Shown one piece after another: positions 41,351 to 64,000 of a stretch of DNA of 64,000 nucleotides. How positions within the stretch are numbered: the first letter of the stretch is position 1; every line of letters starts with the position of its first letter. Source of the DNA: Desulfarculia bacterium (GTDB lineage: Bacteria; Desulfobacterota; Desulfarculia; G963662305). Under the pieces are notes generated by a model. The model searched no databases. It worked only from the letters and a program-made list of their open reading frames with translations, and was not told the DNA's origin. Made by a program: the position numbers and the translations under genes. The stretch is taken from NCBI GenBank assembly GCA_963662305.1, contig OY759351.1, positions 960,428-1,024,427 on the forward strand. The letters are read 5' to 3'.

Positions 41351-41400
41351 GTCCGCTTCGGGGGCCTTTGAGGGCGCTTTGAGGGTGGAAAGGTTTATTC

Positions 41401-42213: not shown

Positions 42214-42252
42214 ACCGGGTAACGGGCTCGGATTGCTAAAAGAGCCCGGAGT

Positions 42253-46010: not shown

Positions 46011-46458
46011 ATGCACTCTCCAGGAGCTCCTTGAACCGCCAGTATCAAAGAATGATATTACATGTGAGAACAACCAGTTAACCTTGTGCTTCACTTAGCC
46101 GGGCAGAAATGATTTCAAGGCAAGATCACTCTGTCGCTGGACCAAAATTCGGGGAGAGGTCAATTCCTTTGAATTTGCTGATCAGCATAAGATTTTATGC
46201 GTGTAAATCCTTTCATGATTTTCCTGTAAACCTGCCCAAGGAGAGCTCACTGCTAACATTGAAAATCAAGCGACGCCACTCAGCTCCCTCGTGAGCCTTT
46301 TAATCCCCCAAGGGGGGTTTAATTCCCTGCGGCTTGCCGCGAGTGCAACCACCGTTTTCTCCTGCCATACCCCGCTGCTTGCTGCGGGGTGGTTGCTTAA
46401 ATTCACTTTGCAAATTCCGGAATATGCTTGACCGCACCAACAGGACAGGTTATGCATA

Positions 46459-46498
46459 TTGGTAAGACCGGTCGGATAATCTTACCGGTAAGATGAGG
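46459..46498. promoter_or_regulatory. GntR/FadR-type operator-like bipartite palindrome upstream of dctP
   Basis: TTGGTAAGACCGGT-cggataat-CTTACCGGTAAGA. Near-identical to the motif at 49997-50034. A TTGACC -35-like hexamer lies 17 nt upstream. Confidence 0.5.
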
Positions 46499-46542
46499 AA
46501 GGCCGCCTGACATACCAAATGAATGAAAAGGGAGGACAAGGG

Positions 46543-47589: not shown

Positions 47590-47757
47590 GAGTACTGAAC
47601 AGCCGGGCGTTGCGGGGCCCTGTGAAGGTTCGGCAGGCCCTGCTGTTCAGGAAATTGACAAACAGTCGGAGGCGGCCGGGCTCTGCTGGGAGCGCTTTGA
47701 AAGCGACAACGGCCCGGAGGGAAACACAAGCCGTTCGTGGAAAAATAATTTTTGAAG

Positions 47758-47797
47758 CAGGCGAAAAATCCGCCTCCGGCTCAGCCTTTTTATTTTA
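47758..47797 (+). terminator. possible intrinsic terminator after dctP (GC dyads followed by a T-tract)
   Basis: caggcg-aaaaatc-cgcctcc, then ggctcagcc followed by tttttatttt. Confidence 0.35.
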
Positions 47798-47804
47798 GAT
47801 AGAG

Positions 47805-49925
47805 GTGCGCGAGTTGGCCGTTGTCTCAACAAACTCAAACCCCGGGGTTTTACGAATGGGACGAAGTGAGATGATCGAACGGTCATTCCTGCCCGCCGTC
47901 GAATTTGAATTCGCCGTCCTGGCTGATACCCACTACATGCAGGACCCGGGTTCCGAGCAGGTTGAATTCCAGTCCCGCCGTCTCCAGACGGCGAGAATCG
48001 AGAGGGTGTTGGGGCTGGTTGAATCCCTGGAAGTCGATTTTGTGGTTCACCTCGGGGATCTGACCCAAAATTACCCCGAGGCCGAAGGCTATCATGATTC
48101 GCTCGACCAGGCCCTGGGGCAACTCAAGAAACGCAACCTGAATTGGCGGTTCGTGGCCGGTAATCACGATGTGGGGGACAAGCCCGATCCGACCATGCCC
48201 ACAGAGTGGGTCTCTGAAGAAAGGCTCTCCCATTATCACCGCGTTGTCGGCCCTTCGTGGTATAGCTGGGACCGGAATCGCCGCCATTTCGTGGTCTTAA
48301 ATTCACAGATACTGAATTCCGCCCTGCCCCAGGCCGCCGCCCAGAATCAGTGGCTGGAAGAAGATCTGGCGGCCCACCGGGGCAGGCCGGTTTTCATGTT
48401 CATGCATCTGCCGCTTTATCTGGAAAACGAGGCCGAACCGGATTTGGGGCATTATGACAATATCGGTCAGCCGGCCCGCCGGAGATTGCTTAGTTTGATC
48501 CGTGAGTACGGGGTAAAGCTGGTTTTCGCCGGCCACAGCCACTACCCCTTTTTCGATAATATCGGAGCGACGAAATATTACGTGGCCGCTTCGCCTTCTT
48601 TCACCCGGCCGGGATTCGGGGAGATGTTTTCCAGTTGCCCTCCCCCGGAAAGGGGTCGCAATGATCAAGGCAAGCTGGGATTTTATCTGGTCCGGGTCGG
48701 CGGCGACAACATCGAGGTCCACTTTATCAGAACCGGAGGGGAGACCGCAGCCCTGGGAAGCGAACCGGATTATAAGAAGATCGTTCCCTGCCTTTCCTCG
48801 GAATATCCCGATTCGCCGATGGGGCTGACGCTTCGGCATCCCCTGTCCTGGAGAAGCGAGGTCCCGATCGCCTTTCCCTCGACCATCCGCCAGAAAGTTC
48901 GTAATGATTGCCAGATGTTGGCTATCACCGAACTGGGCTGCAGGCACCTCCGGGTTCCGGCGGCCGATTTTCAAGATGAGTTTCAACGGCAGAGGTTGAC
49001 CATCTTAAGGAACCAGGGTGTCGGCCTGACCGCTTTTTGGTTGTGGTCCGAGGGACTTGATTTGGTTTCAGCGATCCTGCCCTTCAGGGATCTTCTGGAC
49101 GGGATGGAGATTCAATTGGTCGGTCTCACCAAGCCGGGGCCGGAGTGTCTGGACCTGATGGCAGCCCTGGTCTCTCAATCAGGTCTGGAAACGACCCTTT
49201 CAACCCTGATTCCGAACGAGCGTGTCCGGGGCAAACAGCATGATCGTCCCAGATTCGGATTTCTGCCAGGCGAGTTGCCGGAATTGATTCACCATCTGAG
49301 CAAAAACCGGCCTGGTCCGGGACGGATCACAGCCCGCCTTGAACCCGGAATCGAACCTTGGGAGACCGTTGTTCGAGGCCGGTGGGCATCCCGTCCGGAC
49401 CGCCCCTTTGCGATCGACTGGCTGGTGGAAATGCAGACCACGGACGAGTCGGAGCAGACGGCCCTGGCGGCCGAAGCCCTGTTCGCCGGGGCCGCCTTGG
49501 GCGACTCCCGCATCTTCCTGGAACCCGTAATCGACCTTGACCGGACAATGGACGCCGCCTTCGGGCTGCTCGACCGGTTGGACAATCCCCGTCCCGCTTT
49601 CAGGGCCGTCAGTTGTCTGAACACCATACTTTTCAATAGCGGCGGAAAGTACAGTCCGAGAGAGCCTTTTCAGTTTGACGGGGTTCGGGTGCTGGGCCTT
49701 GACGGAAAAGGGGAAACGCTTCTCCTGCTCCTGCCCGACCGGTCAAACCGGGACGGGGTGGAAGTGGATATCCAGGGGCTCGAATCCCTGGCGGGAATCT
49801 CGGGGACAGACGAATACTATGATCTGGGAAAAGGGGCGGGGATGAAGCCGGGATTCGGCGAAGACCGCGATTCACAATCCTTGTTGCGGCCCACAGGTCC
49901 GATCCTGCTCGTGGTCCGGTACTGA
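47805..49925 (+). CDS. calcineurin-like metallophosphoesterase with an ~450-aa uncharacterised C-terminal region
   Basis: The N-terminal ~250 aa carry the metallophosphoesterase motifs LADTHY, GDLTQNY, GNHD and GHSHY. The C-terminal two thirds match no family I recognise. The start is GTG 47805 or ATG 47871. Confidence 0.65.
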   Translation: MRELAVVSTNSNPGVLRMGRSEMIERSFLPAVEFEFAVLADTHYMQDPGSEQVEFQSRRLQTARIERVLGLVESLEVDFVVHLGDLTQNYPEAEGYHDSLDQALGQLKKRNLNWRFVAGNHDVGDKPDPTMPTEWVSEERLSHYHRVVGPSWYSWDRNRRHFVVLNSQILNSALPQAAAQNQWLEEDLAAHRGRPVFMFMHLPLYLENEAEPDLGHYDNIGQPARRRLLSLIREYGVKLVFAGHSHYPFFDNIGATKYYVAASPSFTRPGFGEMFSSCPPPERGRNDQGKLGFYLVRVGGDNIEVHFIRTGGETAALGSEPDYKKIVPCLSSEYPDSPMGLTLRHPLSWRSEVPIAFPSTIRQKVRNDCQMLAITELGCRHLRVPAADFQDEFQRQRLTILRNQGVGLTAFWLWSEGLDLVSAILPFRDLLDGMEIQLVGLTKPGPECLDLMAALVSQSGLETTLSTLIPNERVRGKQHDRPRFGFLPGELPELIHHLSKNRPGPGRITARLEPGIEPWETVVRGRWASRPDRPFAIDWLVEMQTTDESEQTALAAEALFAGAALGDSRIFLEPVIDLDRTMDAAFGLLDRLDNPRPAFRAVSCLNTILFNSGGKYSPREPFQFDGVRVLGLDGKGETLLLLLPDRSNRDGVEVDIQGLESLAGISGTDEYYDLGKGAGMKPGFGEDRDSQSLLRPTGPILLVVRY

Positions 49926-49969
49926 AGGCATGAAGCATGTTTCTCCCAAATGGCAACTCGAATTTATTC

Positions 49970-49998
49970 TTGACTATAAATGTGAGGGACATATAATT
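49970..49998 (+). promoter_or_regulatory. sigma70 promoter of the gntR operon (TTGACT, 17-nt spacer, TATAAT)
   Basis: TTGACT 49970-49975 and TATAAT 49993-49998. The operator motif begins inside the -10 box. Confidence 0.6.
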
Positions 49999-50034
49999 GG
50001 TAAGACCGGTAAGGATATCCTACCGGTAAGGAGA
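49997..50034. promoter_or_regulatory. GntR/FadR-type operator-like bipartite palindrome overlapping the -10 box and transcript start of the regulator gene
   Basis: TTGGTAAGACCGGT-aaggatat-CCTACCGGTAAGG; core TGGTnnnACC as in FadR-subfamily operators. Confidence 0.55.
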
Positions 50035-50041
50035 TGACGGT

Positions 50042-50773
50042 ATGGCCTTTGAAAAAATAGCCCCTGGAACATTTCAGAACAGAAGCTCTCTCATCGCCAA
50101 GATCATTGTGGAAAAAATCCAAGCCGGCGAATACAAGGTCGGTTCCAAGCTGCCGCCGGAAAGAGTGCTCGCCGAGCAGATGGGGGTCGGACGGCCGGCC
50201 ATCAGGGAGGCCATCTGCGCCCTACAAATCGTGGACATAGTGGAGAGCAGGCCGGGCGACGGCACCTACGTCCAGAACACCGAATGGGCCAACCCGAGTA
50301 CGTTGCAGCGGGAAAGTTCCGCCCTTTCGCTGCTGGAGGAGGGCGACAACCCCTTTGAGGCCCTGGAGGCCAGGCGGACCGTGGAAGCAGATACCGTGAG
50401 GCGTGCTTCTGAAAGAAGGGATCAGCAGGATCTTGAAAAAATCAAATTGACTCTTGACCGGATCGTTGCCGCCGTCCGCGATAAGGAGATAGACGATCTG
50501 CTCGAAGCCGATTGCGAATTTCACGAAGCTATCGCTGTCGCGGCCAAAAATACGCTTCTGGAAAGAATCCTCAAGTCCCTCATGAAAGTGATGGAGCAGG
50601 AACTCTGGACCAAGATCAAGAAACAGTTTCTGGCAAGCAATTCCAAGGATCATTTGTCGGAGACCGTTAAGTCTCACGAAGAGATTTTTGAGGCCATAAA
50701 AAACCAAGACGGGCAAAGAGCGGCCAAGATCATGGAACGGCATTTTGACGAAATAGAACGTTTGTTCGATTAG
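50042..50773 (+). CDS. GntR-family (FadR-subfamily, FCD domain) transcriptional regulator
   Basis: The N-terminal winged helix-turn-helix is KLPPERVLAEQMGVGRPAIREAICALQIVDIV. An FCD-like helical domain forms the C-terminus. The AGGAG ribosome-binding site is 7 nt before ATG. Confidence 0.85.
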   Translation: MAFEKIAPGTFQNRSSLIAKIIVEKIQAGEYKVGSKLPPERVLAEQMGVGRPAIREAICALQIVDIVESRPGDGTYVQNTEWANPSTLQRESSALSLLEEGDNPFEALEARRTVEADTVRRASERRDQQDLEKIKLTLDRIVAAVRDKEIDDLLEADCEFHEAIAVAAKNTLLERILKSLMKVMEQELWTKIKKQFLASNSKDHLSETVKSHEEIFEAIKNQDGQRAAKIMERHFDEIERLFD

Positions 50774-50791
50774 GAACAGATTGGAGAATAG

Positions 50792-51262
50792 ATGTCTGTT
50801 GAAGATAAGCTGAAAGAGATGGGGCTCCAGCTCGATTTGGACCGGGAGGTCAAGGCGCCTGTTATTAACAAAGCAACCAGATCGGGAAATTTAATTTTCG
50901 TTTCCGGACACGGACCGCTCGGCCCTGATGGGAAGATGGCTTTTTCGGGCCGGGTCAGCGCAGAGCTTAGCCTGGAGGAAGGGTACCAGGCGGCCAGACT
51001 CTGCGCCCTCGATTGTCTGTCTTCGGTAAAGGCCATGGTCGGGTCTCTGGATGAAATCGAGGAAATCGTCTCGGTCAGGGGCTATGTAAGCAGCTCCCTT
51101 GATTTTTTTGATCAACCCAAGGTTTTAAACGGCGCCTCGGAATTCCTTATCGCCCTATTGGGGGACCGTGGCCGCCACACCCGGACAGCCATCGGCACCT
51201 CCGCCCTGCCCGGCAACATTCCGGTTGAGGTAGACATGATCGTCAGGGTTGGGTCCGCTTAG
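50792..51262 (+). CDS. Rid (YjgF/YER057c) family protein
   Basis: Chorismate-mutase-like Rid fold signature (...DQPKVLNGASE...RTAIG...P); about 156 aa. Confidence 0.8.
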   Translation: MSVEDKLKEMGLQLDLDREVKAPVINKATRSGNLIFVSGHGPLGPDGKMAFSGRVSAELSLEEGYQAARLCALDCLSSVKAMVGSLDEIEEIVSVRGYVSSSLDFFDQPKVLNGASEFLIALLGDRGRHTRTAIGTSALPGNIPVEVDMIVRVGSA

Positions 51263-51308
51263 GATCTGAAAACCGCTTTCCGCCGCACCGGCATAAAGGA
51301 GCGCTCCA

Positions 51309-51782
51309 GTGGGAGAAGCTGAGAAAAAAATAAGGGAGTTGGGGCTGGTTCTGGCCCCCAGGACGGAGATTCGGACGCCGGTCTACGAAAAAGCCAAGCG
51401 GGTCGGCGATCAGGCTTTTGTGGCCGCTCACGGTCCGCAGGACTCCCAGGGCCGGGTGGCATTCACCGGCCGTCTGGGAATCGACCTCACCATTGATGAA
51501 GGCTACGAGGCGGCAAGACTTTGTGCTCTTGACTGCCTGGCCTCTCTGAAGGTTTTGCTGGGTACGCTCGACAAAATTTCCCAGGTCGTCATGGTCAGGG
51601 GTTTTGTCAACAGTGCCGATGGTTTTTTTGACCAGCCCAAGGTAATGAACGGCGCTTCTGAGGTTCTCATTGATATTTTCGGTGACCGGGGCAGGCATTC
51701 CAGGACAGCCATAGGCGTGCCCGTTTTACCCAGAAACCTGGCCGTTGTTGTTGATATGCAGGTCGATTTGGTTTCCGACTGA
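51309..51782 (+). CDS. Rid-family protein, tandem paralog
   Basis: About 50% identical to the upstream Rid gene (CALDCL, FFDQPKV.NGASE, GDRGRH.RTAIG shared). Confidence 0.8.
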   Translation: MGEAEKKIRELGLVLAPRTEIRTPVYEKAKRVGDQAFVAAHGPQDSQGRVAFTGRLGIDLTIDEGYEAARLCALDCLASLKVLLGTLDKISQVVMVRGFVNSADGFFDQPKVMNGASEVLIDIFGDRGRHSRTAIGVPVLPRNLAVVVDMQVDLVSD

Positions 51783-51840
51783 TCCATATCCGACCTGGCC
51801 CAGGTTTCGACAGCCTCTCGTTCACTCTTCGGAGGAAAAC

Positions 51841-53139
51841 ATGAAAAACGACAAATCGACGGCATTGCTCAACGAATATGACCGCATCGTTCCGGGAGGA
51901 GTGCACTCAAATTTCCGTCGGCCGGTCTATTTCAAGAAGGTCCAGGGAGCCTATCTCTGGGATGTTGACGGCAACGAATATCTTGATTGCGTGATCAACA
52001 ACGGCGCCTGCATTTTGGGACATGGCGACCCGCAAGTCGCTGCGGCAGTGACAGAAACGATGAGCAACGGCCTCACCGTCGGGCTGGAGTCCGAACTCAG
52101 CCTGGAGGTGGCCAAACAGCTTCACGAGATGATCCCCTCGGCCGAACAGGTCCGGCTGGCGAATACCGGCACCGAGGCGGTGATGAAGGCCCTGATGGTC
52201 GCCCGGGCCTTCACCGGAAGGGAAAAGATAATAAAGGTGGAGGGATGTTATCACGGCTGGTTTGACGAGGCCCAGGTGAGCGTCCATCCGGATCCGCAGG
52301 AGTCCGGTCCGGCCGATGCCCCGATCCCGGTTCTTGAGACTTCGGGTATCAGACATAACACAACCGAATCGGTACTGGTCGTTCCCTTTAACAACCCGGA
52401 GTCGCTTGAGCGGACCCTGGAGGCCAACAAGGACCAGGTTGCGGCCATGATAATCGAGCCGGTGGTGCTCAACAGCGGCTGCATTATGCCTCAGCCGGGA
52501 TATTTGGCCGAGGTCAGGCGGCTGACCGAAAAATACGGCGTGCTTCTGGTCTTCGACGAGGTGATTACCGGTTTCAGGCTGGCTCCCGGAGGGGCCCAGG
52601 AACTCTTCGGGGCGGTTCCGGACCTCAGTACCTTTGCCAAGGCCATTGCCAACGGGTACTCCCTGGCAGCCTTAGCCGGCCGCAAGGATCTGATGGAGTT
52701 GACCCGGCCGGGCCGGCGTCTGACCTATGGCGGGACCTACAACGGGCAGTATTCGGCCCTGGCTGCGGCGTCGGTCTGCCTCCGGAAACTGAAGGACGGA
52801 ACGGTCCAGAAACACCTCGATACAATAGGCCGGACCCTTTGCCGAAGGTTTGAAAGGGAGGCGGCTGAGGTGGGAGTAAAAGCCCGCATATACCAATGCG
52901 GCGGCGAGTTCCAGATCTATTTCACAGACCGGGAGATCAAGGACTACCGCGACGCCTGCTCCGCCGACCAGGACAGCTACCGGATCTTTTTCGAGACCGT
53001 CAGCGACAAGGGGCTTTGGATGAGCGCGGGGTACTTGTTCCACCACGGCCTGACCTACGCTCACGGCGAGGCCGAATTGGACAAGATCATAACCGCCTTC
53101 AGGGCCGGTCTGGAGGCGGTGAGGGCCTTTCAGGGCTGA
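51841..53139 (+). CDS. class III PLP-dependent aminotransferase (glutamate-1-semialdehyde aminomutase-like)
   Basis: GGVHSNFR, YLWDVDGNEYLD, NTGTEAV and FDEVITGFR motifs. ATG 51841 directly after GGAGGAAAAC. Confidence 0.8.
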   Translation: MKNDKSTALLNEYDRIVPGGVHSNFRRPVYFKKVQGAYLWDVDGNEYLDCVINNGACILGHGDPQVAAAVTETMSNGLTVGLESELSLEVAKQLHEMIPSAEQVRLANTGTEAVMKALMVARAFTGREKIIKVEGCYHGWFDEAQVSVHPDPQESGPADAPIPVLETSGIRHNTTESVLVVPFNNPESLERTLEANKDQVAAMIIEPVVLNSGCIMPQPGYLAEVRRLTEKYGVLLVFDEVITGFRLAPGGAQELFGAVPDLSTFAKAIANGYSLAALAGRKDLMELTRPGRRLTYGGTYNGQYSALAAASVCLRKLKDGTVQKHLDTIGRTLCRRFEREAAEVGVKARIYQCGGEFQIYFTDREIKDYRDACSADQDSYRIFFETVSDKGLWMSAGYLFHHGLTYAHGEAELDKIITAFRAGLEAVRAFQG

Positions 53140-53200
53140 TCGCTGAAAAACTGGTCACCTGTGGGAGCTAGAATTTCTTTTTGGATACGGAGGCAAACTA

Positions 53201-54433
53201 ATGGCAGCCAATACACAACGCCCCTGGATCAGTGAGAGGGCCTTCATCAGCCCCTGGACATACGAGGCCAATCAATCACTTAGTCTGCCCGGGCAGGTGA
53301 CGATCTACGACGTCACCCTGAGAGACGGTGAACAATACCCCGGGTTGGTTTTTACCAAGGAAGACAAGATTCGCCTGGCCGAGGCCCTCGACGATCTGGG
53401 CATAAGCCGCCTGGAGGCCGGGATGCCGGCTGTCTCAAAGGACGATTTCGAGGCTGTTTGCGAGATCGTTAAAAGAATTAAGTCCGATGTGGTGGTCTTC
53501 TGCCGGGGATTGGAAAGCGATGTGGATCTGGCCGTGGAGGCCGGGGCGTGGGGGGTGATAGTGGAGCTCCCCTCCAACCAGACTCTCATCGAAAAAGGAT
53601 ACCAGTGGACCCGGGAGGATGTGGTCGGCAAGGCCATCAAAACCTGTAACTACGCCAAAGGTAAAGGCCTCCATACCACTTTCTTCCTCATCGATTCCTC
53701 GGGCGCCGATCCGTCCTTTTTGAAGTCGATTATCGAAGAGGTCGTCCCCAGGACCGACATCGACTCCCTGACCGCGGTGGACACCTTCGGGCGGTTGAAC
53801 CCTATGGGAACGGCCGCCTTTGTCAAAAAAGTTCGAGAATGGAGCGGGGTTCCGGTGGAGATTCACGTCCACAACGATTTCGGGCTGGGGCTGGCCAACT
53901 CGCTGTCAGCCGTGGAGGCCGGGGCGGTTGCGGTCCACACCAATATGCTCGGACTGGGAGAGCGCTCGGGAGGAGTGCCCACGGAAGAGGCAGCTGCGGC
54001 CCTGGAATACATCTACGGCCTGGATACGGGTGTGGATCTGAAAAAGGTAAAGAAGACGGCCCAGGTATTCGAGTCCGTCTCCGGGGTGAAAATGACGGGC
54101 CACAAGCCGGTTGTCGGAGCAAACTCCTTTGCCTACGAGGCGGGAATAGCGGCCATGTTCTCCTATCGGCTTTTCAAGGATGATCTGCCTTTGAATGTGA
54201 TGCCCTACCGTCCCGATCTGGTGGGCGGTGAATTCCGGATAGACCTGGGCAAAAAAGCCGGGCAGTACAACGTGATGTGGCATCTGGACCGGCTCAGTCT
54301 GGCGGCCGACGAAGACCAGGTGCGCCGAATGGTCGATCTGATAAAGGCCAAATCAATGGAAAAACGCAGCGCCATCACTGAGAACGAATTCATCGACATC
54401 TATAAAACGGTTTGCCCCGGTGCTTCCATCTAA
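53201..54433 (+). CDS. DRE-TIM metallolyase (HMGL-like / pyruvate carboxyltransferase family) aldolase or synthase
   Basis: YDVTLRDGEQ motif near the N-terminus and HVHNDFGLGLAN metal site. Confidence 0.7.
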   Translation: MAANTQRPWISERAFISPWTYEANQSLSLPGQVTIYDVTLRDGEQYPGLVFTKEDKIRLAEALDDLGISRLEAGMPAVSKDDFEAVCEIVKRIKSDVVVFCRGLESDVDLAVEAGAWGVIVELPSNQTLIEKGYQWTREDVVGKAIKTCNYAKGKGLHTTFFLIDSSGADPSFLKSIIEEVVPRTDIDSLTAVDTFGRLNPMGTAAFVKKVREWSGVPVEIHVHNDFGLGLANSLSAVEAGAVAVHTNMLGLGERSGGVPTEEAAAALEYIYGLDTGVDLKKVKKTAQVFESVSGVKMTGHKPVVGANSFAYEAGIAAMFSYRLFKDDLPLNVMPYRPDLVGGEFRIDLGKKAGQYNVMWHLDRLSLAADEDQVRRMVDLIKAKSMEKRSAITENEFIDIYKTVCPGASI

Positions 54434-54566
54434 CCGGAGCTGTCGGCTCATCACTGCAGGGTGGGTTGTCCGTTTTCAGGATGATCAACTCTGCCAATCA
54501 AGCGCTTACGCGCCTTGGAGTTGATCGGGGTGACGATTATTTCTTCCCGATCAGGTCCATAGGGGA

Positions 54567-56465
54567 GTGATCAGGCCAATGAACCGGGAATTCAACGACA
54601 CCATAACCCGAATCGCCCTGTGGTACAGCAGATTGGGCGCGATCTGCCTTCTCGGAATCGTGCTTGTCATTTTGATAGACGTATTCCTGCGGCGGATGTT
54701 CCACATGACCTTTGTGGGCGCCCTGGAATCGGTGGAACTGATGCTGATCATGGTGATGTTCGCCGGCCAGGCCCACACCGAAATAAACGACCGTCACGTT
54801 CAGATAGACATCCTCACGGATAAGCTGTCTCCCCGTACTCAAGCGGTGCTGAGGGTCTTTGTCGGAGCCATGAGTCTGGGTATCACCTTCATCCTGGTCT
54901 GGCAGTCGTTCGTCATGGCCCACAACATGCAGTTGGCCGGAGACAGAACCGGAATGCTGGGGCTTCCCGTATATCCCATGATCTACCTCATGGCGGTGGG
55001 CCTTTCGCTTTTGTGTTTCGTCCTATTTATCGAGTACTACAGATATGTTCGAGAACTTTTAGCCCGGGGAAAAGGCTCCTGGGCCGTGGTCCTGATTTCG
55101 GTCGTTGCGGTCGCCGCTCTCTTTTTGGTGCCGTGGTGGGGCAGATCGCTCTGGCCGGACATCAGCCGCCAGTCGATCGGGATAATCTTTTTGAGCGGTC
55201 TTTTCCTTCTTCTGTTCTTAAGGATGCACATCGGACTGGCGATCGCCTTTTGCGGAGTCATCGGCATGTCCTTTCTGGTCAACTATACGGCCGGCTTCAG
55301 CCTGGCCGGAATCACCATCAAATCGGTGGCCTCGAGCTACACCTGGAGCGTTATCCCGCTGTTCGTCTTTATGGGCTATCTGGCCTCCAACACCGGCATG
55401 GCCCGGGAGATATACGAGACAGCCTACGCCTGGGTCGGGTATCAGCCGGGCGGTCTGGCCATCGCGACCATGGGGGCCTGCGGCGGTTTTGCCGCGGTCA
55501 CGGGCGACACCCTCTCCGGGGCGGTGACCATGGGTTCGATCTCCCTGCCGGAGATGAAACGCTACAACTACGATCCCAAACTGGCCACCGGAGCTGTTTG
55601 CGCCGGCGGGACCCTGGGGGTGCTGATCCCCCCCAGCATAGGCTTCATCATCTACGGACTGCTGACCGAGGAATCCATCGGGAAGCTTTTTATCGCCGGC
55701 ATAGTCCCCGGCATTCTGCTGGTTTTGCTCTTCGCCGCGACCATATCGATCATGGTCCGGCTGAACCCGGCCATGGGGCCCCGGGGCGAAAAGGTCGGCT
55801 TCAGGGAAAAGGTGATATCCCTGAGAAAAACATGGGGGGTTATTCTTTTATTCGTCGTCGTTATCGGGGGTATTTACGGCGGCGTTTTTACCGCCACCGA
55901 AGCCGGCGTGGTCGGCGCAGCAGGGGCGCTGGTCCTCGGGCTGATAAAAAGATCGCTTACCTGGGAAAGGTTCCTGGACGCCCTCAACCAGACCATCCAG
56001 ACGACCTCGATGGTCTTTCTGATATTCATCCCGGCCACGATCCTGAATCATTTTCTGGCCGCCACCAAACTGCCGATGATGATGGCCAATTTTCTGACCG
56101 AGATCCAGACCGCACCCATCGTGATAATCATCATCATAATGATTTTCTACATAATAATCGGGTGCGTCATGAACGTCCTGCCGGCCGTCATCCTGACTCT
56201 GCCGCTGATCTATCCCACCGTCAAGACGCTCGGTTTCGATCCTACCTGGTTCGGGGTGGTGATGATGATAATCATGGAGATGGGCCAGATCACACCGCCT
56301 ATCGGAATGAACGTCTTCGCCATCTCGGGTGTGGCCAAGTACGTACCCATGGGTGATATTTTTAAGGGCATCATGCCTTTTTGGCTCGCCATGACGGTTT
56401 TCGTGGCCCTGCTTCTGATATTCCCCCAGATAGCCACATTTTTGCCTGATTTGCTGATGAAATAA
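54567..56465 (+). CDS. dctQM: TRAP transporter fused small/large permease (DctQ-DctM)
   Basis: N-terminal four-transmembrane DctQ-like part, then a DctM large permease (...GGTLGVLIPPSIG...); about 17 transmembrane segments. Confidence 0.8.
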   Translation: MIRPMNREFNDTITRIALWYSRLGAICLLGIVLVILIDVFLRRMFHMTFVGALESVELMLIMVMFAGQAHTEINDRHVQIDILTDKLSPRTQAVLRVFVGAMSLGITFILVWQSFVMAHNMQLAGDRTGMLGLPVYPMIYLMAVGLSLLCFVLFIEYYRYVRELLARGKGSWAVVLISVVAVAALFLVPWWGRSLWPDISRQSIGIIFLSGLFLLLFLRMHIGLAIAFCGVIGMSFLVNYTAGFSLAGITIKSVASSYTWSVIPLFVFMGYLASNTGMAREIYETAYAWVGYQPGGLAIATMGACGGFAAVTGDTLSGAVTMGSISLPEMKRYNYDPKLATGAVCAGGTLGVLIPPSIGFIIYGLLTEESIGKLFIAGIVPGILLVLLFAATISIMVRLNPAMGPRGEKVGFREKVISLRKTWGVILLFVVVIGGIYGGVFTATEAGVVGAAGALVLGLIKRSLTWERFLDALNQTIQTTSMVFLIFIPATILNHFLAATKLPMMMANFLTEIQTAPIVIIIIIMIFYIIIGCVMNVLPAVILTLPLIYPTVKTLGFDPTWFGVVMMIIMEMGQITPPIGMNVFAISGVAKYVPMGDIFKGIMPFWLAMTVFVALLLIFPQIATFLPDLLMK

Positions 56466-56568
56466 GGCGAGTGGATTGAAATTGGCGGCGACCCCAAAAC
56501 ATCCGTCCGGTGATCGGAGGCCTGATCGGGTTCGGTCAGGGGAGACGGGATATTCAGAGGAGGAAACT

Positions 56569-57330
56569 ATGCTGTGGTCAGAGATGACCTCCCCTCAGGT
56601 AGAGAAGTGCGCCAAGGAGAATTATCTTGTCGTTCTGCCCTGCGGCTCCCTGGAGCAGCACGGGTGGCATCTCCCGGTGGACACGGACAGCGACATCATC
56701 ACCAACGTGGCCCGTCAGGCGGCGTCAAAGATAGAACGGACCGTGGTAATGCCGACCTTGTGGTGCGGCTTTTCGCCCCAGCACCAATCTGCGGCCGGGA
56801 CCGTATCCCTCTCTCTTTCGACCTACGCCTCCTTGATCCAGGAGATCATCGGCGCCGTGGCCGAACACGGTTTCAAGCGGATGGTGCTGCTCAACGGGCA
56901 CGGGGCCAACGAGGAGCCGCTTCGGGCTGTTGTCCGCGGGTTGGTCAAGGAATACCGGATCAGGCTGCTGGTGCTGACCTACTGGTATCTTATCGACCGG
57001 GCCGAGGTGGAAAAGATACGGGAGGGGGGACCGGGCAGCATGGGCCACGCCGGAGAGATGGAGACTTCGGTGGAGCTTTACCTGCGACCCGATCTGGTCC
57101 ACATGGATAAGGCGGTTTCAAACCCGATCCGGCCCAAACTGAAGCATCAGTGGGAGGATATGTTTGCTCCGGGGCCGGCCTTTATGGTCGATTCGCTTTA
57201 TCGTTCCTCGGGGCCCGTGGTCCGGGGAGACGCCACCTGCGGCAGCGCCGAAAAGGGTCGCAAATTCATGGACTGGTCCATCCAGAAGGTAGCCGAATAT
57301 TTACAGGGGTTCATGGAGTTGAACGACTGA
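56569..57330 (+). CDS. creatininase-family amidohydrolase
   Basis: LPCGSLEQHGWHLPVDTD...LNGHG...GHAGEMETS motifs; ATG 56569 after GGAGGAAAC. Confidence 0.75.
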   Translation: MLWSEMTSPQVEKCAKENYLVVLPCGSLEQHGWHLPVDTDSDIITNVARQAASKIERTVVMPTLWCGFSPQHQSAAGTVSLSLSTYASLIQEIIGAVAEHGFKRMVLLNGHGANEEPLRAVVRGLVKEYRIRLLVLTYWYLIDRAEVEKIREGGPGSMGHAGEMETSVELYLRPDLVHMDKAVSNPIRPKLKHQWEDMFAPGPAFMVDSLYRSSGPVVRGDATCGSAEKGRKFMDWSIQKVAEYLQGFMELND

Positions 57331-57389
57331 GAAGCTGGCTTCCATGTCCCTGACTGAAATGAAAGATGTTTCTTAAGGGAGAGTTTTCG

Positions 57390-58265
57390 ATGAGCGACGT
57401 GAAATGCGTTTTCGAGGCCAAGGCCACGACGGCCGAGTGTCCTGTCTGGAATATAGAGGGGAAAGCCCTTTATTGGATCGACATACAGGGGAAAACCCTC
57501 AACCGTTTTGACCCTGCATCGGGTCGGAACAGGGTCTGGCCCGTGGGCGAGGATATCGGATCCTTTGCTTTCCGGGAAACCGGGGGTGTGGTGGCGGCCA
57601 TGCGTTCCGGGTTCGCCCATATCGACCTGAACGGCGGCGGGGTTGACTACCTGGTCGATCCCGAGGCCGAGATCGAGACCAATATTTTCAACGACGGCAA
57701 ATGCGACCGGGCCGGGAGGTTCTGGGCCGGAACCATGTATGAACCCCAGCCCCGCAACCAGCCGGTCGCCGGCCTGTATAGACTCGATCCCGACCTGAGC
57801 TGGCATAAGATGGAGGAGGGGATCGGGACCTCCAACTGTCTGGCCTGGAGCCCGGACAACCGGACCATGTATTTCGGCGACTCCCGGCGCAAAACCGTCT
57901 GGACCTACGATTTTGATTTCGAGACGGGAAGCCTGAGCAACCGCCGGGTGTTTCTCGAACTGGGAGAGCTGGGGCGTCCGGACGGCGCCGCGGTCGACGA
58001 GGAAGGTGGCTACTGGCTGGCCGTTTTCGATTCCAGCCGGGTTTTCCGGTTCACCCCGGACGGCAAGGTCAGCCAAGAGATCAGTCTTCCGGTAACCCAG
58101 CCCACCATGGTCGCTTTCGGCGGCGATGACTTGAGCACGCTCTATATAACCTCGGCCAGAATAGGCTTAAGCGAGGAGCAGCTCGTCCGGGAACCTCTGG
58201 CCGGCGGAATTTTCGCCGTTAAGGTCGAGTTCAAGGGATTGCCCGAACCGAAGTTTAAGGGTTAG
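57390..58265 (+). CDS. SMP-30/gluconolactonase/LRE-like lactonase (six-bladed beta-propeller)
   Basis: ECPVWN...LYWIDI...FNDGKCD...PDG motifs characteristic of the regucalcin family. Confidence 0.75.
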   Translation: MSDVKCVFEAKATTAECPVWNIEGKALYWIDIQGKTLNRFDPASGRNRVWPVGEDIGSFAFRETGGVVAAMRSGFAHIDLNGGGVDYLVDPEAEIETNIFNDGKCDRAGRFWAGTMYEPQPRNQPVAGLYRLDPDLSWHKMEEGIGTSNCLAWSPDNRTMYFGDSRRKTVWTYDFDFETGSLSNRRVFLELGELGRPDGAAVDEEGGYWLAVFDSSRVFRFTPDGKVSQEISLPVTQPTMVAFGGDDLSTLYITSARIGLSEEQLVREPLAGGIFAVKVEFKGLPEPKFKG

Positions 58266-58309
58266 CGCACTGCAGGTTCCTGAAAACATTATAATCGATA
58301 GGAGAGGGC

Positions 58310-60418
58310 ATGAATTCAGCGGGCGAGCCGGTTGAGGCCGCATTGTCCAGGGCCGCAGGTCAACTGTCCGAGTATCAATCCAAACGGCTTTTGGCCGAGT
58401 ACGGCATCCCGGTTGTGGATGAGATTCTAGCCGAGAAGCGGGAAGACGTCCTACAGGCGGCCGTTGACCTGGGTTGGCCGGTGGTGCTCAAGTACTGTTC
58501 CTCCCAACTGACCCACAAGACCGAACAGGGACTGATCGCTCTGAATCTGAACAATCCGGAGGAACTAAAGGAGGCCTTTGAGCGGCTCTCCTCCCTGGCG
58601 GCTGAGACCGGATTGGAGGGGGCGTTCCTGGTTCAGCGGTTCATCAGGGGCGATCGGGAGCTGGTCGCAGGTTTGATCCGCGATCCCCTTTTCGGCCCCT
58701 GCATCATGTTCGGCCTGGGCGGGATTATGACCGAAGCCTTGGGCGATGTGACCTTCCGGGTCGCCCCGTTTTCCCGGGCCCAGGCCGAGCAGCTCCTCCA
58801 GGAACTAAGGTCGGCCAAGATCCTGGGCGAGTTTCGGGGACAGCCGGCCGTCGATCGGGAAATTCTGATAGAGACTTTAATGGGGCTCGGCCGGATCGGC
58901 CTGGATCACCCGGAGATCAAAGAGTTGGACATCAACCCCTTGGTCATCCGGGAAGGACGGCCCGTGGCTGTGGATGCCCTGGTGATCCTGGACCGGGAGG
59001 TCCCCAAAGAGGCTGACCGGGGGGTCAGGACAGAGGGCCTGGGGGCCCTGTTCGAACCCCGCTCGGTGGCCGTTATCGGGGCCACGGCCAAGGAGGGCAA
59101 GGCCGGAAACGACGTAATCAAAAACATTCTGGCCAACGGATATAGGGGCGACCTCCATCTGGTCAACCCCAAGGGAGGCCGAATCATGGGCCGCCGGGTG
59201 GCGGCCTCCATCGAGGACCTTCCGGACGGAATCGACCAGGCCATCATCATCCTTCCGGCCCAGGCCAATCCGGACGCCATCCGAGCCTGCGCCGCCAAGG
59301 GGATCAAGGCCGTGGTTCTGGCGGCGGGTGGATTTGCGGAGGTCGACGAAAACGGCTCCTCCCTCCAGGAGGAGCTGGCCAGGGCGGTGACCGAGACCGG
59401 CATTCGGGCCTTGGGCCCCAACACTTCGGGCCATACCTCCACCCCCCACAACTTCACCTCCAGCTTTTTCCCCCTGGGCAGGCTGCCCAAAGGGCCCATA
59501 AGCTATATCGCCCAGACGGGTAATTTCGCCACTCATACCATGCGCTCCATTATGTCCACCGAATACTACGGGGTGGCCCGGGTGATCGGGCTGGGCAACA
59601 AGATCGATTTTGACGAGACGGACGCCCTGGCCTACCTGGCCCAGGACCGGGAGACCAAGGCCATCTTCTGCTATCTGGAAAGCCTGGCCCGGCCTCGTCT
59701 GTTTCTCGAAACAGCGGCCGAAGTAACCAAAAAGAAGCCGGTGGTGATGCTCAAGGGAGGCAGTTCGGAGGACGGCGCCCGGGCTGCGGTGGCCCACACG
59801 GCGGCCCTGGCCTCTGACCGGAGGATAATGGACGCGGCCTTACGGCAGGTCGGGATTGTCCAGATCCACGAATACTCCCACCTGATTCTGGCGGCCAAGG
59901 CTCTGGTGCGGATGCCCCCCCCCAGGGGCAACCGGGTCGCTTTTCTGGCCCCTTCAGGGGCCATGCTGGTGGCTCTGACCGATCTTTGCCGGCTGAAACT
60001 GGGCTTAACCGTGCCCCGGGTGGAGGAGCGGACCAGAGCCCGGTTGCAGGAGATCAGCCCCTCTTATATCCGGATGCGCAATCCGGTCGATATCTGGCCG
60101 GCCGCCGCCGTCAGCGGGGTGGAGTTCGCCTATCGGGAAGGGATGAAGGCTGTGCTGGAGGACCCGAACATCGACGCCGTGGTTCCGGTCTTGATGATGA
60201 CCGACGAAACAGGGGTACCGGATTTGACCTTTATTCTCGATTTGGCCGATACGCACCCGGACAAGCCCATTTACATCACCTTTTCCGGAGAGAAAAAGCA
60301 CATGGATGCGGCCCGGGATTTTCTTGAACCGCATGGGGTGCCTACCTACCCCCTCATTGAGCAGCCATTTGAGGTTCTCAGCATTCTGGCCCGCTGCCGC
60401 GGGGCCATGGAGAGGTAA
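58310..60418 (+). CDS. ADP-forming acyl-CoA synthetase, fused beta (ATP-grasp) then alpha (CoA-binding / ligase-CoA) domains
   Basis: The N-terminal ATP-grasp region runs LSEYQSKRLLAEYGIPVV...VVLK. Next comes the CoA-binding motif RSVAVIGATAKEGKAGN. A succinyl-CoA-ligase-like alpha domain follows. Confidence 0.8.
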   Translation: MNSAGEPVEAALSRAAGQLSEYQSKRLLAEYGIPVVDEILAEKREDVLQAAVDLGWPVVLKYCSSQLTHKTEQGLIALNLNNPEELKEAFERLSSLAAETGLEGAFLVQRFIRGDRELVAGLIRDPLFGPCIMFGLGGIMTEALGDVTFRVAPFSRAQAEQLLQELRSAKILGEFRGQPAVDREILIETLMGLGRIGLDHPEIKELDINPLVIREGRPVAVDALVILDREVPKEADRGVRTEGLGALFEPRSVAVIGATAKEGKAGNDVIKNILANGYRGDLHLVNPKGGRIMGRRVAASIEDLPDGIDQAIIILPAQANPDAIRACAAKGIKAVVLAAGGFAEVDENGSSLQEELARAVTETGIRALGPNTSGHTSTPHNFTSSFFPLGRLPKGPISYIAQTGNFATHTMRSIMSTEYYGVARVIGLGNKIDFDETDALAYLAQDRETKAIFCYLESLARPRLFLETAAEVTKKKPVVMLKGGSSEDGARAAVAHTAALASDRRIMDAALRQVGIVQIHEYSHLILAAKALVRMPPPRGNRVAFLAPSGAMLVALTDLCRLKLGLTVPRVEERTRARLQEISPSYIRMRNPVDIWPAAAVSGVEFAYREGMKAVLEDPNIDAVVPVLMMTDETGVPDLTFILDLADTHPDKPIYITFSGEKKHMDAARDFLEPHGVPTYPLIEQPFEVLSILARCRGAMER

Positions 60419-60527
60419 ACACCAGGTTTCAGATCCATTTGTCGATGTTGAGGCCTTCTTCCGTGCTTGGACAGCTTGAATCCTCCCCAAAGGCCGACGC
60501 TACCGGCTCCGATGGCGACAGGGGATC

Positions 60528-61670
60528 TTATTTTACATCGCTGACCAAATGTCGAGTGGGAAGATGGGGCCAAGCTGTAACTATAATTACCTGCACCCAC
60601 CTCTCGTACTCTGCCCCCTTTAAGACGCGTTTATTTGGCCGTGAGGCTATCTTTGCGGCTGCCGGTTGGCGAACAATACCCAATTTCTTCATGCGCGTGT
60701 ACAGTGTGGTCCGCTTCATTCCCAAAATCTCGGTTACGCCGCCCGCACCGCTTATTTTGCCGCCGCACTTTTTAATGGCGTGGGTAATATAGCGACGTTG
60801 CAATTCATCCATGGTGGGGAGATCCGTGAGTAAATTTTCATGAAATTGATATCCCTGGTTTGCGCCGCCACGCGTTTGGGGAACCGCCAGCTCAAGATCT
60901 TTGCCGTCCGACAGAATTACGCTGCGTTCAATGACGTTTTGCAATTCCATGACATTGCCCGGCCATTGATAAGCCCTCAGTATGGTTTGGTTCTTATGGG
61001 AAAGCTCCTGGGGAGGTTTTTGATATTTTTTGGCATATTTATTGAAAAAATATTCTACCAGGAGGACGACGTCATTACCCCGCATACGCAGCGGTGGAAC
61101 CACCAGGGGAACTACATTAAGTCGGTAATATAAATCTTCCCTGAAATTGCCGTTACCGACGTCTTTTACCAAATCACGGTTTGTGGCGGCCACCAGTCTG
61201 AAATTGGAGCCAATACTTTTTACGCTTCCCCCTCTGAAAAAGGCTTTTTCCTCCAAAGCACGCAATAGCTTGACCTGTGCGGGCAGGGAAATTTCGCCTA
61301 TTTCATCGATAAATAAAGTTTCCATGTTGGCCAACTCCATACGACCCGGCTTCTGGTTAACCGCCCCGGTAAGCGAGCCTTTTTCATGGCCGAACAGTTC
61401 GCTTTCGAGCAACATCTCCGGTACGGCGGATAAATTTACGGCAACGAAGGGGCCCACTTTACGGGAACTCATGCCGTGAACTCTTCTGGCCAGAAGCTCT
61501 TTGCCGACTCCGGTTTCGCCAAGGATCAATACCGGAGCGTCGGATCTGGCGGCCTTGTCCGATTGCGCAAGCACCTTTTGCATGGTCTGGCTGTGGCAGA
61601 TGATCCCCCTGCCGTCCAATTGACCGCCGGAGGTGGTTTCCCTGAGCGCCGACACGGTCTTTTCCGCCAT
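60528..61670 (-). CDS. sigma-54-dependent transcriptional activator, AAA+ and HTH domains only (sensor domain lost)
   Basis: The gene has GETGVGKE Walker A, GAFTGA-like ESELFGHEKGSLTGA and an HTH at the C-terminus. Only about 30 aa precede the AAA+ domain in this frame. A partial GAF-like fragment lies in another frame in ORF 61526-61954. Confidence 0.6.
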   Translation of the reverse strand: MAEKTVSALRETTSGGQLDGRGIICHSQTMQKVLAQSDKAARSDAPVLILGETGVGKELLARRVHGMSSRKVGPFVAVNLSAVPEMLLESELFGHEKGSLTGAVNQKPGRMELANMETLFIDEIGEISLPAQVKLLRALEEKAFFRGGSVKSIGSNFRLVAATNRDLVKDVGNGNFREDLYYRLNVVPLVVPPLRMRGNDVVLLVEYFFNKYAKKYQKPPQELSHKNQTILRAYQWPGNVMELQNVIERSVILSDGKDLELAVPQTRGGANQGYQFHENLLTDLPTMDELQRRYITHAIKKCGGKISGAGGVTEILGMKRTTLYTRMKKLGIVRQPAAAKIASRPNKRVLKGAEYERWVQVIIVTAWPHLPTRHLVSDVK

Positions 61671-62074
61671 GTTCTGGCAGTATTGCTGAATCCGGTAAAC
61701 ATAGGTTCCCAGCTGCGGCCAATCTCGACAAGGGTGTTGCTCGAAAAATCAAAGGCGGCTTCGCTATACATGGTGTCGTGGTACAGGATGCCGAGTACCG
61801 ACTCTTGAATCCTCAACGGGAGGTACAAAATGGCCTTGGGCAGATGGCCCGGAGCATTATCGACAGTGGATGATTGTTTAACTTTTATGGGCTGATGATT
61901 CCTGTAGGCCTTCAGCACGTAAACCATGCTCTCCCGGAATGACTCCCCATTCACTTCATAGGGCCTGTCAAGGGCGGAGTAAAAATGTACCAGTGGGGCG
62001 GAGTAAAAGTGTACCGGTTTTGAAGTTGATCATCAGGGGGCCTTAAGGCCGCCTGATGAGGATAGAGGCGTGCA

Positions 62075-62560
62075 TCAGGTATTGCCTTTTAGCCGTTTGG
62101 ATTGTTTGAGGCGATAGCTGTGGCCGTTCATTAGGATGTGAACATGATGGGTGAGGCGGTCCAGGAGAGCACCGGTGAGGCGTTCGGAGCCGAACACGTC
62201 GGGCCACTGGTCAAAGGGCAGGTTTGTGGTGATCAGGATCGAGCCGCGTTCATATCTTTGCGAGCTCAGTTCAAAGAGCAGCTCAGCCCCGGTCTTGGAG
62301 AAGGGCACGAAGCCCAGCTCGTCGATAATCAGGAGATTAACCCCGGCCATCTGTTTTTGAAGCCTAAGGAGCCGTTTTTCATCCCTGGCCTCGATCATCT
62401 CGTTGACCAGGGCGGCGGCGGTGGTGAACTTGGCCTTAAAGCCGTTCTGACAGGCGCTGAGGCCCAGGGCCAAGGCCAGGTGGGTCTTGCCTGTTCCGGA
62501 GTTGCCCACGGCCAGGACATTCTCCCGCCTGTTGATGAACTCGCCCCGGGCATGAGAGCC
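62075..62560 (-). pseudogene. istB: istB (IS21 helper ATPase), N-terminal part out of frame
   Basis: The Walker A to C-terminus region is intact. The upstream ...FINRRENVLAVGNSGTGKTHLA is readable in the same frame but is interrupted further 5'. Confidence 0.65.
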
Positions 62561-62579
62561 GTGTAGGATTTGGCCGAGG

Positions 62580-63838
62580 TGGTCTCGACCCTGGCCCTGG
62601 GCAGATGGGGGTAGTTTTGAAGGTCCAGCCGGGGCGTTTTATCTTCTATCCGGCACAGGACCAGATGCTTGACCGCGTCGTAGGAGACCGCACCCAAGCC
62701 GAGGGCCGCTTTGATCCCGGCCCTGACCTCGGCCTGGTCAAAGATCTCCAGCAACCTCAGGATCTGGATATACTCCCGCTTTCCCTTTTTCCCCGAGCGC
62801 CGTTCCAGGAGCCGGCGCAAGCGGTTGAACTCTTGGGGCAGGTCCCAGCCCTTGAGCGGCGCGGCCTGGTCCAGGGCATTTGGTTTACGCTCCAGGATCT
62901 TTAGAGTAAGCCTCAAAAACACGTTCCGTGTTTTTGAGGGACCGCCGGGCCAAAAGCGCGGTTTTGGCCCGGCTTACGGTCGCTTAGCGACCGGCGGCCC
63001 GTGTCCGGTCCGCTTAGAGCGGTCTTCTTTCGAAACATATTTATGAAACCGCTCTATATAGTGCAAGGGATTATAAACCAGGTCCTCTTTTTCGTAAGAC
63101 CGGGGATAACGGACGATCTCCTTGCCTTGGCAGACGATCACCACCTGGTGGACATAGCCCTTGACCAGGACTTCCTGGTGGCCGTAAACAGACGGGACCG
63201 AGTAGTCGCATGCCTTGAATCGGACCAGAGAGGTTGAGCGGACCCTGGTTGACTCCTCGACTGAAATGGGCAAAGGCCAGATTGTGCCCTTCGCACAAAC
63301 CCTCGATCCTCTCGGCCGGAAACGCGGTCACGGACATATCGTCGCTCTGGGGCAGGCTGAGGCATAAATAATGGGCCTTTTGTAAAACGCCGTCGATTAT
63401 TACCCGGGCCTCTCCAAAATCGACCTGGGCATCGCCCGGTGGATGATCCAAGGGCACAAACATCTCCTTGGATCAAAAGCGCAGTTCGCGGACGTAATCC
63501 TTGACCATTGTCAAGCCGCCCGTATATCCGAACTCGTCCCGTAACCGCTCGAAGATCCGCTTCACCGTGTGACGCTGCTTCTTCGGGCGATCCTTGTCTT
63601 ATTCCAATATCTGTTTGATTATCCCAAGGAATGGCCTCGTTTTGGGCCGCCTGGCCGGCTTCTCTCGACAATATCCCGGCGGAATCGAATGCTCCAGCAT
63701 CTTGGATACCGTCCGGCGATCTATCCCGAATCTACGCGCCGCCTCCCGGCGGCTCATCCCCTCCACCATACAGGCCCGGCGGACCTTCCCGTATATCTCC
63801 ATGCCGTACATCCTCCACCCCTCCAACGCTCGATTCAA
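62580..63838 (-). pseudogene. istA: istA (IS21 transposase), split over at least three frames
   Basis: Segments 63599-63838, 63071-63463, 62974-63273 and 62395-62922 each carry consecutive IstA regions in different frames. Confidence 0.7.
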
Positions 63839-63940
63839 CTCGAACTATGGAGTGGGCGCCAGTGGTACATTTTTCAACCGGCCTTCTCGCCTCCTTTTCG
63901 GCCGTCCACTGGTACATTTTCTCTCCGCCTTTTACACTGG

Positions 63941-64000
63941 CCACGGGCTCCCTGGCCGCCGGCGGAACTCTGGGGATTCTCATCCCGCCCAGCATCGGCT
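63941..64000 (+). pseudogene. fragment of a second dctM-like TRAP permease gene beginning right at the IS21 boundary
   Basis: Translation LATGSLAAGGTLGILIPPSIG matches LATGAVCAGGTLGVLIPPSIG of the dctQM gene at 54567. No 5' half is present upstream of the IS. Confidence 0.5.

Follow-up and report, generated by a model that had tools for sequence, protein, structure and literature searches.

Introduction

Deletion associated with an insertion sequence (IS), followed by neutral decay of what is left, is a textbook route to pseudogenes. The locus described here occupies positions 60528–64000 of a 64,000-nucleotide stretch of the genome of a Desulfarculia bacterium (contig OY759351.1 of assembly GCA_963662305.1); this whole stretch is called the window below. 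In it, the relic of an IS21-family element lies between the truncated gene of a sigma-54 activator and the truncated gene of a tripartite ATP-independent periplasmic (TRAP) permease. In our reading, one old IS21-associated deletion left three non-functional pieces, all of them decaying pseudogenes, with a probability of roughly 0.7. The locus resembles known cases of IS-mediated adjacent deletion or inter-IS recombination in its single IS, its two unrelated truncated flanking genes, the missing target duplication and the neutral decay. The only distinctive feature is a sharp step in divergence between strains at the edge of the dead region.

All the components come from well-known families, and no new mechanism is revealed. 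The relic shares with the IS21 family (IS21, IS5376/IS1326-type) the istA–istB gene order, the helix-turn-helix (HTH) and the Mu-transposase-like C-terminal domain of IstA, the DnaA/DnaC-like ATPase IstB, the TG...CA ends and repeated subterminal motifs predicted to bind the transposase. It differs in that the window copy is dead (deletions of 374 and 294 bp, two nonsense codons, frameshifts and a 153-bp insertion) and has no target duplication. Fused-DctQM TRAP clusters have been described from Desulfobacterota and other anaerobes, and the genes downstream of the permease fragment in a sister strain match the clusters at loci L016, L018, L009 and L006. Here, in contrast, only the last ~47% of the gene is left, and dctP and the promoter are absent.

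The activator remnant shares the AAA+ core, the lid and the Fis-type HTH with the GAF-type enhancer-binding proteins (EBPs) of the NorR, FhlA and NifA class. Its parental family has the GAF domain directly upstream of AAA+, as in that class, but carries in addition a TPR-like N-terminal region of ~350 aa. Removal of the GAF domain renders NorR constitutive, a principle for negatively regulated GAF-type EBPs (PMC2941729). The likeness of the window gene to such engineered NorR-deltaGAF constructs is superficial, although its truncation point lies inside the GAF domain. The window copy is frameshifted and lacks both the GAFTGA Phe and the sensor-II Arg, and negative control by GAF in the parental family would hold only by analogy with NorR.

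Truncation of the flanking genes and age of the junctions

The open reading frame (ORF) that starts at ATG 61670 matched Sigma54_activat (PF00158, E = 7.9e-61, positions 1–167 of 168), AAA_lid_14 and HTH_8 (PF02954, residues 287–330, E = 2.3e-6) in Pfam, and Walker A (GETGVGKE), Walker B (DEIGE) and the HTH were preserved. Between it and the IS, in another reading frame, lies the C-terminal part of a GAF domain, which matched residues 404–534 of the 833-aa homologue P0003 (BLASTP, E = 4e-26). The homologues with complete N-termini (P0003, P0004 and P0008) are 745–833 aa long, and the P0003-type layout is a TPR-like region of ~350 aa, GAF (357–486 in P0003), AAA+ and HTH. The remnant starts where P0003 has residue 404, and its gene is therefore not short by nature. 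About 400 N-terminal codons are gone (the TPR-like region and the first third of GAF), and the 3' 60% of the gene is left. The closest homologues, P0002 (71%) and P0005 (73%), begin at contig ends and look short because their contigs end. The loss of the sensory N-terminus that a preliminary description had proposed was thus confirmed, and its own objection, a naturally short gene, failed against the length of these homologues. The parental activator family reached no named NCBIfam equivalog at its cut-off.

The preliminary description had also called the activator otherwise complete. All three domains were indeed recognised, but key motifs are degraded and the HTH is followed by an abnormal C-terminal tail of 45 aa, whereas homologues stop 2–13 aa past MKKLGI. 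The tail is aberrant because of a one-base deletion at 60673; the corresponding protein of the sister strain, P0121, ends with ...MKKLGIASPTGSRKDSLTAK. Furthermore, the frameshift that parts the GAF remnant from the AAA+ ORF is present as described, but its site is 61711/61712 rather than near 61690. The sister-strain reading at this site, VEIGRSLGTYVYRIQQY, agrees with the homologues.

The sister strain is represented by the 105-kb ENA metagenome contig ctg96170l (L002, L145), which was independently assembled and is collinear with window positions 41309–64000. It was found by a protein search through a 432-aa member of the 90% cluster of the remnant. In this contig both IS junctions are the same to the base, and the IS carries the same internal deletions, insertion and nonsense codons. 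Identical junctions and lesions in an independent assembly indicate that the structure is real, that it is older than the split of the two strains and that the IS was dead by then. The event is therefore shown to precede the split, when the IS was already without its DDE core, the 5' end of istB and its reading frame, and the suspicion that the junctions were assembly errors was not borne out.

Decay of the activator remnant

The conservation of the remnant was tested on an alignment with 119 homologues, among which 75 columns are at least 95% conserved. The remnant departs at 5 of the 75, compared with a homologue mean of 1.0. The GAFTGA loop reads GSLTGA in the window, and the position of its Phe is held by F in 116 homologues, by Y in three and by L in none. 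In PspF this Phe can be replaced only by Tyr, according to Zhang et al. (2009) as cited in PMC2941729. The sensor-II Arg (GNVRELxN), which is Arg in all 119 homologues and in the sister strain, is Met in the window (NVMELQN). Moreover, the Gly beside Walker B, kept in 114 of the 119 (96%), is Glu, and NMETLF and FFRGGS (for FFRVGG) are further degraded motifs. When the changes were polarised with the homologues, F199L (codon at 61373), G216E and R340M (codon at 60949) proved to be derived in the window lineage. In total, this lineage carries 8–9 derived replacements (five at near-invariant sites) and the sister lineage three. The two remnants differ by 12 nonsynonymous and two synonymous changes and by two frameshifts, both one-base deletions in the window. 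This ratio and the sites affected suggest that the window remnant is no longer maintained by purifying selection.

No sigma-70-like promoter was found in 60300–64000, and no Shine-Dalgarno sequence precedes ATG 61670 when the sequence is read directly. A scan of 60300–64000 found no canonical terminator between istB and the activator remnant; the palindrome at 62030–62059 has no T-tract. A search of the genome for sigma-54 promoters had been suggested in the preliminary description, and nothing above chance was obtained in the window. TGGCAC-N5-TTGC with at most one mismatch occurred three times against 4.0 expected, and boxes with GG and GC fixed and at most two mismatches occurred six times against ~10.6 expected, none of them near the remnant.

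The idea that the product of ATG 61670 could be an unregulated activator was not upheld. The GSLTGA loop, the sensor-II Met, the two frameshifts, the 12:2 ratio of changes and the lack of detectable promoters all argue against a constitutive activator, and the 375/380-aa ORF is best regarded as a pseudogene fragment. Public annotation lists the remnant (60528–61655) as a plain 375-aa coding sequence (CDS), P0001 (NCBI and ENA; 100% identity), without a pseudogene flag.

Structure of the IS21-family relic

The preliminary description had placed an IS21 element between the truncated genes, and this is correct, except that the left terminus is at 61966 and not at 61971. The genes run istA to istB on the minus strand, with the istB-distal end adjoining the activator remnant. 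The terminal inverted repeats are 31 nt long and 87% complementary, end in 5'-TG...CA-3', and are accompanied by two subterminal direct repeats at each IS end. No further copy of this repeat pattern was found in the window, where none is expected by chance.

An intact relative is available for comparison at L144 2875–5364 (ENA ERZ21831104, ctg96565l), in the metagenome that also yielded the sister strain. This element measures 2490 bp, encodes an IstA of 499 aa and an IstB of 252 aa, and is flanked by a perfect 6-bp target-site duplication, CCTCTG. The two elements are ~92% identical in DNA and their termini are collinear; the remnant proteins are 90–91% identical to the intact IstA and IstB. 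The L144 element is surrounded by other transposase fragments (Transposase_mut and DDE_Tnp_1).

Compared with this relative, the window relic has lost the first ~90 istB codons and the istA stop region to a 294-bp deletion (junction 62554/62555), and IstA residues 185 to ~299, which are most of the DDE core, to a 374-bp deletion at 63261/63262. Besides frameshifts, istA carries nonsense codons at 63599–63601 (TAA) and 63473–63475 (TGA), and the istB remnant has a 3-bp deletion at 62132/62133 that is specific to the window. The istB remnant matched PF01695 at positions 98–236 of 238 (E = 1.3e-46) and NF038214 (IS21_help_AAA) at positions 82–232 of 232 (E = 1.5e-58), with 198.3 bits against a cut-off of 200. 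The istA remnant matched NF033546 (transpos_IS21) at positions 5–180 of 294 (E = 3.3e-40), with 138 bits against a cut-off of 160. Both NCBIfam scores fall slightly under the curated cut-offs because the genes are truncated. The N-terminal HTH and the Mu-transposase C-terminal domain of IstA were recognised between the repeats on the minus strand (Pfam/NCBIfam), but rve (PF00665) gave no match in the istA remnant, and the intact DDE core of an autonomous element is thus missing.

The 153-bp insertion in istA is strongly structured, with a DNA fold of -55.9 kcal/mol (z = -10.6). Nothing matched in an Rfam scan of 60300–64000, this insertion included, and neither the window nor the fetched loci contain a second copy of it. 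Possibly it is a small repetitive extragenic palindromic (REP)- or miniature inverted-repeat transposable element (MITE)-like element.

The window IS has no target-site duplication; its flanks are GGCCAG and GGCCCT (four of six positions match, chance p ~0.04). This is consistent with deletion or recombination after insertion. The istA–istB pair and the TG...CA ends identify the element as a member of the IS21 family, in which the target duplication and the DDE core are no longer seen, and it is a long-dead relic.

The fused dctQM fragment

To the right of the IS, the plus strand from 63937 reads LATGSLAAGGTLGILIPPSIG. The permease fragment that begins here aligns to residues 339–630 of the window's own 632-aa fused DctQM with 49% identity, and in the TIGR00786 dctM model it spans positions 119–404 of 405. 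Among 57 genomes, its nearest relatives are without exception fused DctQM proteins of ~652 aa, and it is 56–64% identical to the C-terminal 300 aa of 652–655-aa proteins of this kind. The preliminary description was right that the permease gene is truncated, but what remains is a fused dctQM without ~338 of its ~632 codons and not half of a dctM.

In the sister strain, a sulfatase-family gene, a thioredoxin gene, a thioredoxin reductase gene and a small thioredoxin-like gene follow 3' of the fragment on the same strand. No dctP lies beside the permease fragment there, and hence a complete set of DctQ, DctM and dctP is not present. One frameshift, near residue 206, interrupts the sulfatase gene (L002 5453–6996), which is otherwise 65–70% identical to the intact gene of L016. 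This frameshift is either further decay of a promoterless operon or an assembly indel.

Divergence between the two strains

The divergence of the window from the sister contig (L002/L145) was not uniform. The left flank (41309–60527) has 13 differences in 19,219 bp, or 0.68 per kb, whereas the activator remnant has 17 in 1,438 bp (11.8 per kb) and the IS relic 29 in 1,971 bp (14.7 per kb). The step falls between 60422 and 60949, at the stop codon of the remnant (60528). In the nearest 9.9 kb of the flank, five coding single-nucleotide polymorphisms (SNPs) were found, two of them synonymous. Synonymous divergence there is only ~0.09%, against ~1.3% in the dead DNA, and relaxed selection alone is therefore too weak for a ~20-fold excess. 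The derived states of the IS SNPs are split 11 to 12 between the lineages, as neutral drift predicts, which indicates that both lineages drifted. Some differences are tightly clustered (six in 26 bp at 62263–62288 and four in 16 bp at 61222–61237).

Two specific causes of the excess were considered and rejected. Gene conversion from an intact IS like that of L144 does not agree with derived states that are divided 11 to 12 and mixed within the clusters, and adenine-specific mutagenesis of the kind found with diversity-generating retroelements (DGRs) does not agree with changes that affect all four bases and include transitions as well as transversions. Mosaic ancestry accounts for the step most economically: the left cluster was recently homogenised by recombination, or one assembly contains a haplotype switch, and the boundary lies at the pseudogene edge by chance.

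The gene of an ADP-forming acetyl-CoA synthetase (58310–60418) lies in the left flank. At 59348 an A4 run is one A longer in the sister contig, where the gene is consequently broken into ORFs of 404 and 292 aa; in the window the 702-aa gene is intact. The sister contig thus holds at least one homopolymer indel, either an error or a real mutation.

Features and composition of the region

The coordinates of the features are collected in Table 1. The G+C content is 50.8% in the activator remnant (60528–61965), 57% in 42001–60500 and 62.4% in 1–42000. A DDE_Tnp_1 fragment lies at ~45291–45839, with an 80%-identical partial copy at 12776–13436. The right-hand part of the window, this fragment included, looks compositionally foreign.

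Table 1. Positions of the activator, IS and permease remnants in the window and of the lesions within them.
Feature	Positions	Strand	Remarks
Activator remnant ORF	60528–61670	-	380 aa from ATG 61670; sigma-54 AAA+ domain, lid, Fis-type HTH
One-base deletion	60673–60674	-	Relative to sister strain; frame changes just past HTH, C-terminal tail lengthened
One-base deletion	61711–61712	-	CCAG-CTG, CCAGGCTG in sister strain; frameshift between GAF remnant and AAA+ ORF
GAF C-terminal part and linker	61713–61965	-	Residues ~404–486 of the 833-aa homologue P0003
IS21-family relic	61966–63936	-	1971 bp; intact 92%-identical relative 2490 bp
Terminal inverted repeat, istB-distal end	61966–61996		Second subterminal repeat copy at 61996–62018 (repeat search)
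istB remnant	62075–62554	-	IstB residues ~91–252 of 252; 91% identity to L144 IstB
istA remnants	62555–63838	-	IstA residues 1–184 and ~300–496 of 499
Insertion in istA	62906–63058		153 bp, five consecutive stem-loops; in sister strain, not in intact relative L144
Terminal inverted repeat, istA-proximal end	63906–63936		Second subterminal repeat copy at 63859–63873 (repeat search)
Fused dctQM, 3' part	63937–64000	+	First 21 of ~300 surviving codons; enters at about residue 339 of ~632; runs past window edge

Discussion

The preliminary description had held that the two broken genes cannot have been contiguous and that a deletion or rearrangement was involved. The second part agrees with our results. 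A simple IS insertion into a pre-existing gene fusion was rejected, since the genes lie on different strands and point away from one another, and since the IS lacks a target-site duplication. As to the first part, the genes were probably former neighbours. The two remnants diverge and the missing 5' ends of both face the IS, which is the geometry of a regulator with a divergent target operon. Related loci show comparable arrangements. L018 has, in a row, a GAF-EBP, dctP, dctQM, a sulfatase gene and trxB. In L011, an EBP that shares 43% identity with P0003 in its N-terminal region is transcribed divergently to a cluster of phosphodiesterase, DsrE, dctP, dctQM, TauE and alkylsulfatase genes, and in L003 a divergent EBP lies upstream of dctP-dctQM. 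L016, L006 and L009 have dctQM together with sulfatase, trx, trxB and a small gene. Furthermore, all three members of the activator family for which a long contig is available diverge from a catabolic or transport operon, and one of these operons contains dctPQM.

A -24/-12-like box (TGGCAT-N5-T/A-T/G-GC) was found in the EBP-adjacent intergenic regions of L018, L011 and L003, where ~0.01–0.09 are expected per region. Boxes of the -24/-12 type (TGGCATGGATTTAGCT, TGGCATTTTTTTTGCC, TGGCATGTGATGTGCA and TGGCATGCCTTTTGCT) stand at L018 ~7467, L011 ~1930, L003 ~5445 and L006 ~5052, upstream of TRAP/sulfatase-type operons. These predicted boxes suggest that this type of TRAP-sulfatase cluster may commonly be sigma-54 dependent. 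Judged from these relatives, the broken genes were most likely the regulator and the target of one locus.

The history of the locus may then have been as follows. The original locus would have held a large sigma-54 EBP of the TPR-like/GAF/AAA+/HTH layout, divergent from the operon that it controlled, dctP-dctQM-sulfatase-trx-trxB; the sulfatase-family genes suggest that this operon served uptake and processing of some substrate. An IS21-family element would have entered this locus, and at least 3.5 kb would have been lost beside it, either because the transposase mediated an adjacent deletion or because two IS copies recombined. The loss would have comprised ~400 activator codons (~1.2 kb), the shared control region, in which the enhancer sites and the -24/-12 promoter would have lain, dctP (~1.1 kb) and ~338 dctQM codons (~1.0 kb). 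After the split of the strains the remnants drifted, and the window activator gained its two frameshifts and lost the GAFTGA Phe and the sensor-II Arg.

Several observations weigh against this account. An uninterrupted orthologous locus was not recovered: a scan of metagenome contigs with P0121 was dominated by the generic peptide NFREDLYY and gave only generic EBPs and relatives of 37–55%. The adjacency of activator and dctQM is drawn from distant relatives (40–64% identity) with variable gene content, and in L018 the EBP is co-directional. The ~20-fold divergence excess in 3.4 kb goes beyond what relaxed selection alone can give. In addition, the remnant ORF of the sister strain, P0121, is uninterrupted over its 432 aa, keeps GSFTGA and NVRELQ and has acquired only the three derived replacements, and for that lineage non-function ever since the deletion is not proven. 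The two frameshifts of the window could in principle be consensus errors, but its 8–9 derived replacements cannot be.

The fragments might also come from distant loci, two IS copies having inserted separately, one in the activator gene and one in a dctQM elsewhere, and having then recombined by a large deletion or inversion. The activator would never have regulated the TRAP-sulfatase operon, although the remnants would still be pseudogenes. The missing target-site duplication fits recombination between ISs as well as adjacent deletion, and the failure to find an uninterrupted orthologue agrees with separate origins. So do the variable gene content near related dctQM genes, many of which have no adjacent EBP, and the diverse operons that members of the activator family regulate. 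We nevertheless regard this origin as unlikely, because the orientation of the remnants is exactly that of a divergent regulator/operon pair and EBPs with -24/-12 boxes adjoin the closest dctQM-sulfatase clusters in L018, L011 and L003. Moreover, no second IS copy exists in the window, and no intact IstA of the 2.98-Mb genome was among the best matches. An assembly artefact, in which a chimeric junction formed at a repeated IS, together with indel errors, mimics the truncations and frameshifts, can practically be disregarded. IS elements are common misassembly points, and in all five indels between the two assemblies the window has the shorter version. Yet the independent metagenome assembly shares both junctions to the base together with the lesions inside the IS, the window has no other copy of this degenerate IS, and the acetyl-CoA synthetase gene is intact in the window where the other assembly has its extra base.

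The reading with a single old deletion has also to be weighed against the possibility that the truncated protein, from ATG 61670 or in the 432-aa form of the sister strain, is produced, perhaps through transcription that reads out of the IS, and works as a GAF-free constitutive sigma-54 activator. The precedent of NorR (PMC2941729), the position of the remnant directly downstream of the IS genes on the same strand, where no canonical terminator intervenes, the intact Walker A, Walker B and HTH, and the better-preserved sister ORF speak for such a protein. It is very improbable all the same, given a Leu that none of the 119 homologues has at the GAFTGA Phe, the replaced invariant sensor-II Arg, the excess of nonsynonymous changes and the lack of a sigma-70-like promoter and a Shine-Dalgarno sequence. 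In addition, half a GAF domain would probably not fold, the enhancer and promoter on which the activator is likely to have acted were probably deleted with the control region, and sigma-54 promoters in the 64 kb do not exceed chance. A somewhat different course, improbable too, would be that the truncated protein was active for a time after the deletion as a deregulated ATPase or activator and was then silenced by a burst of inactivating hits in the window lineage (F199L, R340M, G216E and the two frameshifts), the divergence step being specific to this segment. If that were true, the ~20-fold step would reflect selection for inactivation together with the acquisition of a dead allele, or a mutational process that acts locally; the alternative to a segment-specific cause is a boundary of recombination or of a haplotype switch that lies there by chance.

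The main value of the single-deletion reading is for annotation: counting the remnant CDS P0001 and the IS and dctQM fragments as genes would inflate the apparent regulatory and transport repertoire of this organism. The locus is also a clean and datable example in which one IS-associated deletion would have taken away a regulator along with its control region and the beginning of the operon that it targets, and the intact 92%-identical IS and the sister strain serve as references for polarising the later decay. The point of wider interest is the abrupt change of divergence between the strains at the edge of the dead DNA.

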